Shown here one piece after another: positions 12,169 through 20,215 of a stretch of 64,000 bases of DNA. A program made the translations under genes and the position numbers. Numbering within the stretch: the first letter of the stretch is position 1; the number at the start of each line of letters is the position of its first letter. The notes under the pieces are model-generated. The model ran no database searches and was not told the origin of the DNA. It saw nothing but the letters and a program-made list of their open reading frames with translations. The stretch is from Ruminococcaceae bacterium UBA3323 (GTDB taxonomy: Bacteria > Bacillota > Clostridia > Oscillospirales > Acutalibacteraceae), in assembly GCA_002361935.1 (NCBI GenBank), contig DESD01000021.1:10872-74871 (forward strand), in the 5' to 3' direction.

Positions 12169-14185
12169 GGTTCAATCTTCCTTTCAGTTTTTTTATAACA
12201 GGTGTATTCATCAGATCCACCTTTGCGGCAACTTCGCAAACACGGATATCCTTTTCATCATATTCAATAAGTCCGCACTCCGAAAATGCCTTAAGCGCAA
12301 ATTTTAATTTGCCGTATGTAACAGAATTCAAAGCAAAATAAAGCTCATCAAAACCAAAGCACCAATGCTTTTTCTGTCTTAAAAACTTATAAATAACCGA
12401 GCAATCTGCTCTGTCCGGAAAAACAGATTCGGAATTATTTTTATGAAGCGAAAAAAGCTCGTATTCTTCCTTTTCGGCAAAATATTTATCATCATCATTT
12501 CCGTGCCTTTTAATATCGGCAGCCTGCAACGAAAGATATTCCCTGCCGTTATAAAGATTTTTTGAAGCCCTGACAACAGCATCTATATATTCTCCTGCCG
12601 CAAATGGAAATTCATCCGCAGTACATCTGAATTTAGAAATTTTAAAGATTTTGCCTTTCTTTTCACATTCAAGCCTGATATGTTTTCCGTTTCCCATAGG
12701 CGTTACGGAAAGCAGCCTTAAATTCATAAGAGCAAAAGCAGCATTTCGGTTTGCTTCGCCGAACGGCTCCAAAACAGAAAGTGAATCAACCAATTCTATA
12801 TTAAGAAAAGCAGGAGAAATTTTGCAGTCAATATTTATGGACGGAACCGGCATAACCGGATAAGCTGAAACTGCATATTCATTTATACGGTTTCGGAATA
12901 CATCAACATCCGCCGGGTTAAGCCCTAAACCTGCCGCCTTTGGATGACCGCCGAAATGGCTTAACATATCCGCACAGGCTGAAATCGCCTCGTAAATATT
13001 AAAGCCCTCTATACTCCTTGCCGATCCGACTGCCATCCCGTTTTCTTCAGTCAGAACAATAACGGGCTTGCCATATTCCTCAAGCACCTTTGCGGCAACA
13101 ATTCCGACAACGCCCAAATGATAATTTTTTCCGCACACCACGATAACCCGGTTTTTGGCGATATCGGGATTTTCTGCTATTTTAAGCATAACATCTTCAA
13201 AAATATTCTGTTCAAGCTCCTGCCTGTGTGCATTATCAATATTTATCTGTTCTGCCTTAAAAGCTGCATCATCTTTATTTTCACAAAGCAGAAGCTCTGC
13301 GGCTCTTGCTGCATCATCCACTCTTCCCGTTGCATTAATTCTTGGGCAAAGTGTAAAGGCAACATCGGTTGCAGTCAGCTTTTTATCTGCCGCTCCTGCC
13401 GCTTTTTTCAGGGCTTCAATACCGATTCGTGAGCCGCTGTTGATAAGCCTGATTCCCGCTTTTACAAACGCCCTGTTTTCACCGATAAGCGGCATAACAT
13501 CGGAAATTGTGCCAAGAGCAACCAAATCGGCAAACTGATAAAGCATATCCTCCGTATCCCCGTAAACAGCACAGGCAAGCTTAAAAGCTACGCCAACACC
13601 TGCAAAATCACGAAAAGCAATTTCATTTTCAGCTCTGTGGGGATTTACAACAGCTTCAGCCCTTGGAAGCGTATCTCCGATTTGATGATGGTCAGTTACA
13701 ACAAGACGCATACCAAGAGAATAAATATATTCAGCCTCTTCAATGGCGGAAATACCGTTATCAACCGTAACGATAAGCTTTGTGCCTCTTTCTCTGATTT
13801 TATCAATTGAGGCCCTGTTCATACCATAGCCCTCATTCAGACGTGAGGGAATATAATAATCAACATCAGCACCCATATCCTTCAGGAAGGTATAAAGAAG
13901 AACGGTTGAGGTTACACCATCACAGTCGTAATCGCCGAATATGGTTATTTTTTCTCCGTAATCCACAGCCTCTTCAATAGCAGAAACAGCCCTTTCCATA
14001 TCGCAAAGCTGAAAAGGGTCTGAAAAATCGTAAGAGGAGGCTAAAAAGTCTGCCACATCGGCACTGCTCTCTATCCCCCTTGAAACAAGCATAAATGCTA
14101 TAAACGGATCAATATTAAATTGTTCGCTTAAATCGGATGCCTTTTCTTTATCTGCATCTGCTATTATCCACTTTTTATATGCCAT
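12161..14185 (-). CDS. recJ: Single-stranded DNA-specific exonuclease RecJ
   Basis: GDYDCDG, P.R..EGYG, TVDNG, TDHH, RINA.GR, GSARS, FGGH..AAG, LEPFG..N. Confidence 0.96.
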   Translation of the reverse strand: MAYKKWIIADADKEKASDLSEQFNIDPFIAFMLVSRGIESSADVADFLASSYDFSDPFQLCDMERAVSAIEEAVDYGEKITIFGDYDCDGVTSTVLLYTFLKDMGADVDYYIPSRLNEGYGMNRASIDKIRERGTKLIVTVDNGISAIEEAEYIYSLGMRLVVTDHHQIGDTLPRAEAVVNPHRAENEIAFRDFAGVGVAFKLACAVYGDTEDMLYQFADLVALGTISDVMPLIGENRAFVKAGIRLINSGSRIGIEALKKAAGAADKKLTATDVAFTLCPRINATGRVDDAARAAELLLCENKDDAAFKAEQINIDNAHRQELEQNIFEDVMLKIAENPDIAKNRVIVVCGKNYHLGVVGIVAAKVLEEYGKPVIVLTEENGMAVGSARSIEGFNIYEAISACADMLSHFGGHPKAAGLGLNPADVDVFRNRINEYAVSAYPVMPVPSINIDCKISPAFLNIELVDSLSVLEPFGEANRNAAFALMNLRLLSVTPMGNGKHIRLECEKKGKIFKISKFRCTADEFPFAAGEYIDAVVRASKNLYNGREYLSLQAADIKRHGNDDDKYFAEKEEYELFSLHKNNSESVFPDRADCSVIYKFLRQKKHWCFGFDELYFALNSVTYGKLKFALKAFSECGLIEYDEKDIRVCEVAAKVDLMNTPVIKKLKGRLNLV

Positions 14186-14508
14186 TATGAATTTTTATCC
14201 ACCTGATGAAATTTTTTGAGGTTGCCTCGCTTTGCAGCTCTTTTTTCAAGCTCGGCTTCAATATCCTCAGGGGTAATACCCTGATTTGCCATCATGACAA
14301 GTGTATGATAAATCAAATCCGTTATTTCATAAACCGTTTCTTCCTTATCATTATTTTTAGCGGCAATCACCATTTCCGTGCATTCCTCGCCAACCTTTTT
14401 CAGTATTTTATCAATTCCCTGTTCAAAAAGATAGGCGGTGTATGAGCCTTCCGCCTTTTCATTTTTTCTTTCTATAATAACCTGATACTCGTTTTTAATT
14501 AAATCCAT
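14185..14508 (-). CDS. hisE: Phosphoribosyl-ATP diphosphatase
   Basis: GSYT.YLF..G.DKILKKVGEE..E, E..DL.YH..V. Confidence 0.95.
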   Translation of the reverse strand: MDLIKNEYQVIIERKNEKAEGSYTAYLFEQGIDKILKKVGEECTEMVIAAKNNDKEETVYEITDLIYHTLVMMANQGITPEDIEAELEKRAAKRGNLKKFHQVDKNS

Positions 14509-14837
14509 CAGAATTTTTCTCCTTTAATTTCATTGAAAAAACAGCTATGGCTTCCTGTATGGCAGGCCGCCCCTGTCTGAATAACCTTAACAAGCAGGGT
14601 ATCATCATCACAATCGCCGTGGATGGAAACGACTTTTTGAAGATGGCCGCTTGTTGCACCCTTGTTCCAAAGTTCCTGCCTGCTTCTGGACCAGAACCAT
14701 GTATAGCCGGTTTCAAGCGTTTTCTGCATAGACTCTTTGTTCATATATGCAAGCATAAGCACCTCGTTTGTGCCGCTTTCCTGAATAATGGCCGGAATTA
14801 AATCAGCCTTCTGAAAATATTTTTCTATATTCATCAT
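14508..14837 (-). CDS. hisI: Phosphoribosyl-AMP cyclohydrolase
   Basis: [39 protein letters not shown]. Start probably 14837 (ATGA overlap with hisA). Confidence 0.95.
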
Positions 14838-15547
14838 TTGCACACCTCTATGGCTTCCTCAAGAATAAGGGTTTTATTATAAAGGCTTTTTCCGCAGATT
14901 GCACCATACAGCCCCTCTTTTTTCAGAGCAAGAATATCATCAATATTTGTTACTCCGCCCGAAGCGGTTATATCACAGGAAACTGCATTGTTGATTTCGG
15001 CAAGCTGGCTGATATTCGGACCGCTCAATGTACCGTCCTTTGAAATATCGGTATAAATAATTGTTTTTACACCGGCTGCCTCCATCTGCTTTGCAAGCTT
15101 CGTAAAATAAACATCGGAGCCCTCTGTCCATCCCTCGGCTGCAGCATAACCGTTTTTCGCATCAATACCAACAGCAATGATATCGCCGAATTCTTTAACA
15201 GCCTCCCTAACCAAATTCGGATTCTTAAGAGCAACAGAGCCGAGAATAATACGACTTATATTATGATTTACATAAAAATCTATATCCTGCATCGTTCGGA
15301 TACCGCCGCCGATTTCAACCTTAAGCCCTGTTTGATTTGCAACATCTGTAAAGGTTTTAGCATTTACAGGCTTTTTCTGCAAAGAGCCATCCAAATCAAC
15401 CATATGTATCCATGAAGCGCCTGCCTTTTCAAACTGAAAAGCGGTTTCAAGTGCGTTATCGGCAACCTGATGCGCTGTTGAAAAATCGCCCTTGTAAAGG
15501 CGAACGGGTTTACCGTCTATAATATCTATTGCAGGAAAAATAATCAT
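14834..15547 (-). CDS. hisA: ProFAR isomerase
   Basis: IFPAIDI.DG..VRL.KG, H.VDLDG, GGGIR, TDI.KDGTL.GPN, ASGG. Confidence 0.95.
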
Positions 15548-16343: not shown

Positions 16344-17237
16344 TTATTCCTTTTCACAGTAAAGCGTAATATTCGTTTTATCGGAAACAACGGCTACATT
16401 TCCGTTTATATCCGTTCTTAAAATCTTTGCGCCGATTTCGCTTAAATTATTTATCGCTTCAAAATGAGGATGATTATAGGAATTATCCTTTCCAACCTCA
16501 ATAACAGCAATACCGGGCGAAACAGCACTTACAAATTCAAAGGAGGAAGCAGTTTTACTGCCATGATGACCTACCTTTAAAACATCAGCATTCAGTTTAT
16601 CCTTTGTTGAAGCTTTTAATATTTCTGTTTCAGAAGCAGCCTCGGCATCACCCATAAACAGAAACACATTACTGCCGTATTGAAGCCTTAAAACTGCCGA
16701 ATACGCATTAAGATTATCATAATTGGCTTTCACAGGGGCAAGAAATTCGGCAGACAAATCATCTTCATCAAGAACCGCTGCACCCGCCTTTGCCGTATGG
16801 ATACTCCTGCCCTTATCGGAAATTGCAAGAAGCAGGTTTTCATATGTTTGGGTATTTGCCGAAACCTTTGGCATATAGATGTCACCGATATCAAAATGCT
16901 CAACAACCGCTTTCATTCCGCCGATATGGTCGGCATGCGGATGTGTTGCAACAAGATAATCAATTTTACTGTATCCAAGCCTAGAAATAAAATCAATTAT
17001 TGTATCTGATGCATCAGATGTTGAAGCATCAATCAGCATACATTTTCCGTCGGGAAGCTGAACAAACTCGCTGTCCCCCTGCCCTACGTCTAAATAATTT
17101 ACAACGATTGTACCGTCCGTCTGCAGGTTTTTACCTGCTTCAAGCTCTTTGGTTTCCGTAAGATAATACCCGGTAACGCTGAGCAAAGCAACAACAATAG
17201 CAGCAATAATCGTTTTTATAAGCTTTTTATTTCTCAT
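16344..17237 (-). CDS. Membrane-anchored or secreted ComEC/Rec2-type MBL-fold hydrolase
   Basis: N-terminal hydrophobic anchor, YLDVGQGD, THPHADHIGG, FMGDAE, KVGHHGS, HPH, RTD.NG. Confidence 0.85.
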   Translation of the reverse strand: MRNKKLIKTIIAAIVVALLSVTGYYLTETKELEAGKNLQTDGTIVVNYLDVGQGDSEFVQLPDGKCMLIDASTSDASDTIIDFISRLGYSKIDYLVATHPHADHIGGMKAVVEHFDIGDIYMPKVSANTQTYENLLLAISDKGRSIHTAKAGAAVLDEDDLSAEFLAPVKANYDNLNAYSAVLRLQYGSNVFLFMGDAEAASETEILKASTKDKLNADVLKVGHHGSKTASSFEFVSAVSPGIAVIEVGKDNSYNHPHFEAINNLSEIGAKILRTDINGNVAVVSDKTNITLYCEKE

Positions 17238-18520
17238 TTATCAAATCTTACCTTGATGGAGTTGGCATGCGCAGTTAAGCCCTCACTGTCTGCAAGCGTA
17301 ACAATTTCATCCTTAGCCTGTGCAAGCGCATCCTCTGTATAATAAATAAATGAAGATTTTTTTACAAAGCTGTCAACAGAGAGCGGACTGAAAAATCTTG
17401 CTGTTCCGCTTGTAGGAAGGACATGGTTCGGGCCTGCAAAATAATCACCGAGAGGTTCAGGCGACCAGTTACCAAGAAAAACAGAACCGGCATTATCAAG
17501 CATGCCTATATATTTAAGAGGCTCCTCAACACAAAGCTCAAGATGCTCGGGAGCAAGCTCATTTGCAAATTCAATAGCCTGAGCAAGATTTTCACAAACG
17601 ATTATCTCTCCATAGCTTTCAAGGGACTGCTCTATAATTTCCTGCCTTTCCAGGAACTTAATCTGCTTTTCAATTTCCTTTGCAGTAGCTTTTGCAACAG
17701 CCTCTGAGGTTGTTAAAAGAATAGAAGACGCCATTACATCATGCTCTGCCTGACTCATTAAATCAGCTGCAAGAAAGGACGGCTTTGCCGTTTTATCCGC
17801 AACAATAAGAATCTCGGACGGACCGGCAACCATATCAATATCCACAACGCCGTAAAGAAGCTTTTTGGCAGTTGCAACAAAAATATTTCCGGGACCGACA
17901 ATTTTATCAACCTTTGGTATTTTTTCCGTTCCGTAAGCAAGTGCGGCAACAGCCTGTGCACCGCCGCAAAGGAAAACCTTATCAACACCGGCAACTGCAG
18001 CAGCAGCCATAATGTTCGGGTTGGGAGAGCCATCCTTTGACGGGGGAGTTACCATTATAATCTCCTTAACCCCTGCAATCTTGGCCGGAACAGCATTCAT
18101 CAAAACAGAGCTTGGATAAGCTGCTGTGCCGCCGGGAACATAGATTCCGACTCTTTTAAGACCGCGAACACGCTGCCCCATAATCACGCCGTTTTCCTTT
18201 GTTGTAAGCCAGCTTTGCTGCGCTTGACGCTGATGGAAATCATAAATATTATTTTTAGCATCAACCACAGCCTGCTTGAAATCATCATCAACCAGATCAA
18301 GATACGCCGAAAGCTCGTCCTTTTCAATAACTGTTTTTTTAGGCACGGCACCGTCAAATCTTACGGTATATTCACGAACGGCATCATCACCGCCCTCTTT
18401 TACACCCTGAATAATGGATGAAACAATATCAACAATTTTCTGATCTGTTTCGCCGCTTCTTTTCTTCAGATTCTCAATAAGCGCATATTCGCTTTTTCCG
18501 TTTGCTTTTGTAATTTTCAT
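17234..18520 (-). CDS. hisD: Histidinol dehydrogenase
   Basis: YVPGGTAAYPSSV, KIVGPGN, DM.AGPSE, QAEHD, APEHLE, GDY.AGPNHVLPT. Confidence 0.97.
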   Translation of the reverse strand: MKITKANGKSEYALIENLKKRSGETDQKIVDIVSSIIQGVKEGGDDAVREYTVRFDGAVPKKTVIEKDELSAYLDLVDDDFKQAVVDAKNNIYDFHQRQAQQSWLTTKENGVIMGQRVRGLKRVGIYVPGGTAAYPSSVLMNAVPAKIAGVKEIIMVTPPSKDGSPNPNIMAAAAVAGVDKVFLCGGAQAVAALAYGTEKIPKVDKIVGPGNIFVATAKKLLYGVVDIDMVAGPSEILIVADKTAKPSFLAADLMSQAEHDVMASSILLTTSEAVAKATAKEIEKQIKFLERQEIIEQSLESYGEIIVCENLAQAIEFANELAPEHLELCVEEPLKYIGMLDNAGSVFLGNWSPEPLGDYFAGPNHVLPTSGTARFFSPLSVDSFVKKSSFIYYTEDALAQAKDEIVTLADSEGLTAHANSIKVRFDK

Positions 18521-18529
18521 ATTTTACCC

Positions 18530-20143
18530 TCACGCCTTACTTGCTTTTTCCATATCAGCAAGAAATGCTTCAATTTCATCCTTGCGAAGCTTCATGGAAG
18601 CCATATTAACAATAACCCTTGCAGAAATAGGGAAAATTTCCTCTACAACCTCAAGCCCGTTTTCTTTTAAAGTTGAACCTGTTTCCACAATATCAACAAT
18701 GCCGTCTGCCAAACCGAGAAGAGGCGCAAGCTCAACACTGCCTTCAATTTTAATAATATCCACATCCATACCCTTTGATTTAAAGAAATCTCTTGCAACC
18801 TTCGGATATTTTGATGCAACTGTTTTTCTTTTATAACCACTGAAAAAATCCGTATTTTTAGGACAGGCCAGCGCAAATCGGCACTTGCCGAGGTTTAAAT
18901 CCATAACCTCATAAAAGGAGCTGCCATGCTCAACAATTGTATCCTTTCCCACAACACCGATATCGCAGACACCGTGTTCAACATAGGTGATGACATCCGG
19001 TGCTTTTGAAAGAACAGCCTCATACTTATCAACGGGAAGAATTAATCTTCTGCCTTTGTTTTCAAGTTCACTTGTATCAAGCCCCATTTTCTGAAAAAGA
19101 CTGACCGATGATTTTTCAAGCCTGCCCTTTGTTAATGCAATTCGGATAGGACGCTCCACATTAATAACTTCATTCTTGGCATCACAGAGTGCATTAACAT
19201 CAACGCCAAAACCGATAGCCGGAACATCCAGACCGAATTCAGCAATAAGATTATCATATCTTCCGCCTGAAAGTATTGTTGCACCCGAGCCTTCTGCATA
19301 TCCCCTGAAAATAACGCCTGTATAATAATTTGAACGGTTAACAAGCCCCAAATCTATCATCACGGCATCAGAAATTTTCATTTCTTCAAGTTTGCCCAAA
19401 AGCGTTTTCAGATAATCAAGTGCTTTATCCGAATTTTCACTCTGATAAAGCTTTTTCGCTTCATCCAGCACCTCTGTACCGCCGAAAAGACGGGGAAGCT
19501 TATGGAGTACCTGTGTTTCCGGAGTATTTCCGATTTCATCAAGCAAATCACCGAGGGCTGCGTAATTCTTACCCTCGATAAGCTTGCATATCTCTGACTT
19601 TTCGGTTGAAGATAAATCCATTTTATCAAGCACAGCATTGAAAAAACCTGCATGGCCGATTTCAATCTTAAATGAATTAACACTTGACCTTTTCAGTGCC
19701 TCAACCGCCATAGAGATAACCTCTATATCAGCCTCAAGTGAAGCATCACCGATAAATTCAATTCCGCTCTGAGGAATTTCATCCGTAGTTCCTGCAAGCA
19801 CCTTGTTCTTAACAAAAACATTCTGGTTGTAATAAAGCCTTACAGGAAAATCTGCCTCTTTGAGCCTTGTTGCAACAAGACGGGCAATCGGCATTGTATT
19901 ATCCGGACGAAGCACTGTTGTTCTGCCGTGATTATCGGTTAATTTATACATATCATCGGCCTCAATGCCTGCATTCCCGTTTGTAAATACATCAAAAAAT
20001 TCAATCGCCGGGGTTACAACCTTACGATATGAATTTTCCTTGTATAGCGTCGAAAGTGCAGTTTCCACATTCTTTCTGTCGTCACATTCGTCAAAAAGAA
20101 AATCACGGCTGCCCTCGGGTGTTATATTTGAATATCTTTTCAT
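18530..20143 (-). CDS. hisZ-hisG: Fused ATP phosphoribosyltransferase: HisZ regulatory domain (N-terminal ~325 aa) plus short-form HisG (C-terminal ~210 aa)
   Basis: N: TPEG.RD.L, LRPDNT.PIAR, QSGIE, YYTG..F, GGRYD.L. C: IALTKGRL, YVE.G..D.G.VGKD, ASKYP, GSVELAP..GLAD.IVDIVETG.TL.ENGL. One uninterrupted 537-aa frame. Confidence 0.92.
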   Translation of the reverse strand: MKRYSNITPEGSRDFLFDECDDRKNVETALSTLYKENSYRKVVTPAIEFFDVFTNGNAGIEADDMYKLTDNHGRTTVLRPDNTMPIARLVATRLKEADFPVRLYYNQNVFVKNKVLAGTTDEIPQSGIEFIGDASLEADIEVISMAVEALKRSSVNSFKIEIGHAGFFNAVLDKMDLSSTEKSEICKLIEGKNYAALGDLLDEIGNTPETQVLHKLPRLFGGTEVLDEAKKLYQSENSDKALDYLKTLLGKLEEMKISDAVMIDLGLVNRSNYYTGVIFRGYAEGSGATILSGGRYDNLIAEFGLDVPAIGFGVDVNALCDAKNEVINVERPIRIALTKGRLEKSSVSLFQKMGLDTSELENKGRRLILPVDKYEAVLSKAPDVITYVEHGVCDIGVVGKDTIVEHGSSFYEVMDLNLGKCRFALACPKNTDFFSGYKRKTVASKYPKVARDFFKSKGMDVDIIKIEGSVELAPLLGLADGIVDIVETGSTLKENGLEVVEEIFPISARVIVNMASMKLRKDEIEAFLADMEKASKA

Positions 20144-20161
20144 AGTTTATCTCCTTGATTA

Positions 20162-20196
20162 CACTTTAGCGTGCTAACGTGCTACTATGCTAACAC
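20162..20196. promoter_or_regulatory. Putative HisR-type operator (20-bp pseudo-palindrome plus an overlapping second site)
   Basis: CACTTTAGCGTGCTAACGTG (20162-20181) and GTGCTACTATGCTAACAC (20179-20196), lying over the +1/-10 region of the his promoter. Confidence 0.65.
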
Positions 20197-20215
20197 ATTG
20201 AAACTGTAATGTCAA
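20187..20215 (-). promoter_or_regulatory. sigmaA promoter of the his operon
   Basis: TTGACA-17 nt-TAGCAT, with TG upstream of the -10. Confidence 0.8.

Follow-up and report, generated by a model that had tools for sequence, protein, structure and literature searches.

Allosteric activation and feedback inhibition are both studied in the short form of ATP phosphoribosyltransferase (ATP-PRT), a model system that has also been proposed as an antibiotic target in Acinetobacter and whose kinetics are complicated by the association equilibrium between HisZ and HisG. In the characterized enzymes of this form (L. lactis 1Z7M/1Z7N, T. maritima 1USY, P. arcticus 5M8H/6FU2 and A. baumannii 8OY0), HisZ and HisGS are two separate, associating polypeptides that make up a HisZ4:HisGS4 hetero-octamer, in which two G2 dimers flank a Z4 core. 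The gene hisZG, located in a 64,000-nucleotide stretch of contig DESD01000021.1 from Ruminococcaceae bacterium UBA3323 (the window), shares both domains and the family signatures of these enzymes, but it is one ORF and its product a single polypeptide in which the two parts are joined by 8 residues. The long-form enzyme, HisGL (E. coli; M. tuberculosis 1NH7), is a hexamer and, like the hisZG product, has catalytic and histidine-sensing modules in one chain; its regulatory module, however, is a small C-terminal ACT-like domain, whereas that of hisZG is an N-terminal HisRS paralogue.

RefSeq and UniRef already include the fusion from cultured bacteria, the Veillonella atypica protein WP_005375514.1 being fused and belonging to a cluster of 2011 sequences (UniRef100_E1L451, ‘Multifunctional fusion protein’), with further database members in Gallicola sp. 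(WP_441748636.1) and a Coriobacteriia MAG (MCL2403206.1). These single-chain proteins have the same domain order, a length of 527-593 aa and, in most, a short connector, but are just 34-37% identical to hisZG and lie on other branches of the HisZ tree, where the interleaving of database fused proteins with separate HisZ makes independent fusions the most likely explanation. They are currently named either as ‘regulatory subunit’ only or as ‘ATP phosphoribosyltransferase’ only, so that hisG or hisZ can look absent in pathway reconstructions. In the literature, hisZ-hisG is listed in passing among fused his genes (PMC9413887), and hisZ is not mentioned in the review cited there for his fusions (Fani et al. 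2007). Literature searches returned no biochemical, structural or evolutionary study of fused HisZ-HisG, nor protein-level, kinetic or oligomer data on any fused form; this widespread and repeatedly evolved architecture is contained in databases, but it seems that nobody has studied it.

Domain architecture and predicted structure

The hisZG gene (18530..20143, minus strand) opens with an ATG at 20143 and closes with a stop codon at 18530, and its 537 codons, with zero internal stops, encode a HisZ core, a connector and a short-form HisG. The HisZ domain comprises residues 1-324 (19172..20143, minus strand) and is a paralogue of the HisRS catalytic core without the C-terminal domain, as assigned by TIGR00443 and Foldseek, while the HisG domain comprises residues 333-537 and, with the stop codon, occupies 18530..19147 on the same strand, as assigned by TIGR00070, PDB comparison and Foldseek. 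In Pfam, the HisRS-like core PF13393 covers residues 11-319 (E 8e-76) and the HisG domain PF01634 covers residues 380-532 (E 1e-54), and there was no match to the HisG_C regulatory domain in the protein, which identifies the catalytic part as short-form HisG. In NCBIfam, the hisZ model TIGR00443 matched residues 13-324 across profile positions 1-313 of 314 with 319 bits against a cut-off of 271.65, and the hisG model TIGR00070 matched residues 333-512 across all positions (1-183 of 183) with 190.7 bits against a cut-off of 75.75; the true-synthetase model hisS (TIGR00442) reached 177.3, under its cut-off of 286.75. The first-pass annotation had described a single 537-aa frame without an internal stop, joining HisZ to a complete short-form HisG, and both descriptions hold, the first by the reading of the ORF together with Pfam and NCBIfam, the second by the end-to-end TIGR00070 match and the occurrence of PF01634 without HisG_C.

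By the equivalog cut-off and coverage of the whole profile, the N-terminal part is a member of the HisZ family, with a HisRS class-II core fold that lacks the anticodon-binding domain and is not HisRS itself (Foldseek match to 1z7m; hisS below its cut-off). The C-terminal part has the complete catalytic domains and PRPP loop of short-form HisG and no C-terminal regulatory domain. The single-chain architecture of PF13393 followed by PF01634, an N-terminal HisZ core and a C-terminal short HisG, is also kept in relatives.

An AlphaFold2 model of the monomer, built on 45 fused homologues of 30-88% identity, gave a mean pLDDT of 91.2 and a pTM of 0.87. The last HisZ helix spans residues 316-324 and the first HisG strand, β1, residues 333-338, leaving as coil the connector EVINVERP (residues 325-332; 19148..19171, minus strand), most of which falls in the 10-residue block 321-330 with a mean pLDDT of 74. 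A linker of 10-15 residues at ~19150-19200 had previously been suggested; the peptide quoted for it is present, but by the model boundaries its length is slightly shorter, at ~8 residues. In Foldseek comparisons the HisZ part superposed on L. lactis HisZ (1z7m/1z7n) with TM 0.84-0.89 and rmsd 2.5-2.9 Å, and the HisG part on P. arcticus HisGS (6fca) with TM 0.90 and rmsd 2.1 Å; by sequence, the HisG domain matched PDB chain 1z7m_E with E 2.5e-52. Across the PDB sequence and Foldseek comparisons, both parts were not found within any one PDB chain.

Invariant or nearly invariant residues across the 45 fused proteins include T83, E129, Y273-Y274 and G293-G294-R295-Y296 in the HisZ part, which are taken here to be HisRS-type histidine-pocket motifs, and K339-G340, R365, D484, G489 and T491 in the HisG part, which presumably are HisG substrate motifs. 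The invariant D484, G489, T491 and L492 are assumed to be residues of the HisG PRPP loop. Overall, hisZG is taken to be a real, selected single-chain short-form ATP-PRT.

Conservation and origin of the junction

When one genome per species was scanned, 79 loci were recovered; 48 of them encode HisZ and HisG in a single stop-free frame, and in all 48 of these species-level genomes besides the window the junction NE(V/I)INVERP-IRIALTKGRLEK is in frame, of constant length and near-constant in sequence. When the codons of these 48 genes and the window gene were compared, the connector residues N328, R331 and P332 proved invariant in 49/49 while being encoded by 2, 6 and 4 synonymous codons, respectively, which is indicative of selection on the translated frame. 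In a collection of 5.8 billion proteins, each of the best 120 clusters at 90% identity has the two domains, with lengths of 535-556 aa. These data show purifying selection on the junction, which has become fixed in a clade of ~50 species of gut Oscillospirales.

The same observations bear on whether the fusion could be an assembly or sequencing artefact, in which adjacent hisZ and hisG genes of a MAG were joined by a missed stop codon or an indel. The source genome is indeed a draft (2.0 Mb in 71 contigs, 92% complete), and one relative (L086) has an in-frame TAA within its connector. However, 48 independent species-level assemblies and the best 120 protein clusters share the identical in-frame junction at constant length, which makes an indel artefact untenable; the synonymous codon turnover at invariant connector residues marks a frame under selection, and a ~75-residue C-terminal domain of HisZ is missing at the DNA level rather than simply read through. 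The artefact reading is effectively refuted, and its residual probability is negligible.

In the relative with the TAA (L086:3001-4611, GCA_965308065.1; 65% identical), the stop stands at the codon matching E325 and hisD is split into two calls, which points either to a decaying his operon in that organism or to errors of assembly. The closest ‘separate’ HisZ on the tree, P0132 (323 aa), was considered as an unfused intermediate and set aside, as it is a fused gene with an in-frame TAA in the connector, from an assembly whose hisD is split as well.

To place the fusion, a genuine gene fusion by the evidence above, it was compared with the nearest separate-gene clade, which consists of ~27 genomes of ‘Candidatus Fimenecus’ and relatives that are 45-51% identical and have the same polC-hisZ-hisG-hisD locus. 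In the ‘Ca. Fimenecus’ clade, hisZ (398 aa) and hisG (~207 aa) occupy different, slightly overlapping stop-free frames, and the alignment shows that HisZ has an extra C-terminal α/β domain of ~75 residues that is absent from the window protein. The latter tracks separate HisZ through the end of the core and a short lead-in to the C-terminal domain and then passes into the N-terminus of HisG, so that strand β1 of HisG begins in hisZG where the C-terminal domain of separate HisZ began; the HisG N-terminus itself reads M-(K/R)-x-LRIALTKGRLEK in the separate genes versus RP-IRIALTKGRLEK in hisZG. The C-terminal trimming of HisZ that had been proposed from the window sequence is thereby confirmed. 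The aligned loci show that the fusion arose in place at the polC-hisZ-hisG-hisD locus: in one deletion-type event, HisZ lost its C-terminal domain and stop codon, and HisG its start and first residues.

The trimmed HisZ of hisZG spans the same stretch as the natural HisZ of L. lactis, which implies that the C-terminal domain is dispensable for a working enzyme; HisZ without this domain is functional in nature in both L. lactis and T. maritima (PMC10795190). A homology between the N-terminal half of HisG and the HisZ C-terminal domain was considered and is not drawn, as their positions in space differ; Foldseek matches to long HisZ and HisRS over ~400 columns had an rmsd of ~16 Å.

Translation of a single ORF could in principle give two products, with HisG made by internal initiation at the GTG of codon 329 (near 19160), besides or instead of the 59-kDa chain, so that the enzyme would still be partly two-chain. 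This GTG does lie 4 codons ahead of the first HisG strand, and in half of the related genes (25/49, the window included in the comparison) codon 323, ten codons ahead of the HisG domain, is ATG. Against this, the true start has a Shine-Dalgarno sequence, AAGGAG (20151..20156, minus strand), 7 nt before the hisZG ATG as read directly, whereas direct reading of the 24 nt before codon 329 found GGAG, GAGG and AGGA all absent, in agreement with the earlier remark that there is no strong internal Shine-Dalgarno sequence. Codon 329 is GTG in just 3 of the 49 genes, the others having GCx, ACx or GTT (GTT in 27), codon 323 is AAG in the window, and a free trimmed HisZ would require a stop codon, of which there is none. 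With neither a Shine-Dalgarno sequence nor conservation of the codon, the internal GTG was rejected as a start, and production of a separate HisG in this organism is considered improbable relative to synthesis of the single 59-kDa chain. The ATG at the codon equivalent to residue 323 was noted for related loci L014-L040, and in species that have it internal initiation may occur.

Distribution and evolutionary history of the fusion

In the family of the window, surveyed with one genome per genus, 92 of the 121 genomes have HisG, which lies in a 525-557-aa open frame in 7 and in an ambiguous 430-aa frame in one more. In a sample of 250 genomes from the class, 16 of the 149 other HisG matches listed (~11%) are in frames of 524-582 aa; the long-frame matches come from seven families or more, and one family is fused in all eight of its matches listed. 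The fusion had initially been described as not the usual arrangement, which is correct in that it is a minority form, yet it is a frequent one, found in ~8-11% of sampled relatives with hisG. In an exhaustive HMMER search of 1.84 billion representatives at 50% identity, both domains were present in 69 of the best 150 hits, at identities down to 31%.

A maximum-likelihood tree of the HisZ domain from 135 representatives interleaves fused and separate proteins, with at least 16 changes of state, 11 of which are forced by well-supported branches; this number of switches is approximate, since one ‘separate’ neighbour is a fused gene with a nonsense codon. Several independent origins of the fusion are hard to avoid on such a tree. 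The tail after the HisZ core has a median of 73 residues in the separate HisZ representatives, while in the fused representatives the median connector is 10.5 residues, with 25 or fewer in 54/58, and the full-length tail is kept in none.

It is possible, though the balance of judgement falls just short of favouring it, that single-chain HisZ-HisG is a recurrent, convergent third architecture of ATP-PRT in which becoming fused and losing the HisZ C-terminal domain are structurally coupled. If so, the N-terminus of HisG has to bind at the site from which the C-terminal domain of HisZ emerges, and the fused proteins, as obligate homotetramers with a 1:1 ratio, would offer ready material for the study of allostery free of a subunit-association equilibrium. 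Repeated independent fusions with the same domain lost each time are also a tidy case of convergent gene fusion.

Among the fused representatives there is a short set of 422-469 aa (P0142, P0144, P0148, P0157, P0215, P0224 and P0240), in which the HisZ match ends at approximately residue 165 and HisG begins 60-105 residues ‘too early’. They may have lost the helical insertion region of HisZ by deletion, or they may be fragments or misassemblies.

Operon setting and proposed mechanism

The hisZG gene is the sole HisG match in its genome, and a second HisRS-like frame on another contig is presumably the real synthetase. The operon continues 9 nt beyond hisZG with hisD (histidinol dehydrogenase; 17234..18520, minus strand), which is followed on the same strand by a metallo-beta-lactamase (MBL)-fold gene, hisB, a gene of the HisA/HisF family, hisI and hisE, and then by recJ and relA/spoT; another HisA/F-family gene is located elsewhere in the genome.

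Upstream, the stop codon of polC is separated from the hisZG start codon by 75 nt, in which there was no terminator-like site. A promoter-like site, TTGACA-17-TAGCAT with a TG extension (20187..20215, minus strand), follows immediately on the polC stop and was identified as a consensus match only. A candidate HisR operator, CACGTTAGCACGCTAAAGTG in minus-strand reading (20162..20181, without assigned strand), matches the Firmicutes HisR consensus cacTTTAnnnnnnTAAAgtg (PMC9413887) at 13 of its 14 specified positions, and 13 related loci have the pattern immediately ahead of their fused gene. As it lies 5 nt downstream of the TAGCAT -10 hexamer, it probably covers the transcription start. The genome carries a TrpR-family gene (contig C5). 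A T-box or attenuator leader was also considered for this position and rejected, as the gap after polC is too short and the HisR operator fits instead. Transcription would probably start from the promoter just after polC and be controlled by a HisR (TrpR-family) repressor at the candidate operator, a setting that fits an ordinary histidine-repressed his operon.

The steps by which the protein would act are drawn from the two-chain enzymes of L. lactis, T. maritima, P. arcticus and A. baumannii. By analogy with these, the HisG domain would convert ATP and PRPP to PR-ATP and PPi, the HisZ domain would activate the HisG domain allosterically, and binding of histidine in the vestigial HisRS pocket of HisZ would cause feedback inhibition. 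The 8-residue connector would fix the stoichiometry at 1:1 and remove the subunit-association step; the 1:1 ratio, as claimed at first reading, is a necessary outcome of the covalent link. Four chains would probably assemble into a homotetramer equivalent to the HisZ4:HisG4 hetero-octamer, which is plausible on the same analogy, although quaternary structure is the least certain part of the explanation.

An alternative view of function is that the HisZ part is a decayed scaffold, leaving either an enzyme that is active without histidine inhibition or a gene on the way to becoming a pseudogene. Such decay might be read into the loss of the HisZ C-terminal domain and into the one relative that combines a stop in the fused gene with a split hisD, but the HisZ domain scores over the curated hisZ cut-off, the HisRS-type histidine-pocket motifs (as they are assumed to be) are invariant in 45 fused proteins at identities down to 30%, and the gene sits within an intact his operon with a HisR-type candidate operator ahead of it. 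Decay of the HisZ part is therefore regarded as very unlikely, and the explanation as a whole, that of a single-chain HisZ-HisG enzyme that was fused in place and works like the two-chain enzyme, as highly probable. As a natural compact fusion (537 aa, with no HisZ C-terminal domain), the protein would provide an obligate 1:1 complex for enzymology and structural work; it is a useful natural example rather than a surprise, and leaves knowledge of the pathway unchanged.

Several minor features of the operon were also observed. The MBL-fold gene (297 aa; 16344..17237, minus strand) lies between hisD and hisB with a 4-nt overlap with hisD, and its product has an N-terminal hydrophobic segment; about half of the relatives in the fused clade have it (e.g. 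L001-L023), and it is missing in others (L025-L045), where hisB is directly after hisD. The genes hisI (PRA-CH, 111 aa) and hisE (PRA-PH, 107 aa) are separate and adjacent (together 14185..14843, minus strand), unlike the common hisIE fusion, in an operon whose hisZ and hisG are fused. The recJ and relA/spoT genes that follow hisE are on the same strand, with ends that overlap or abut.
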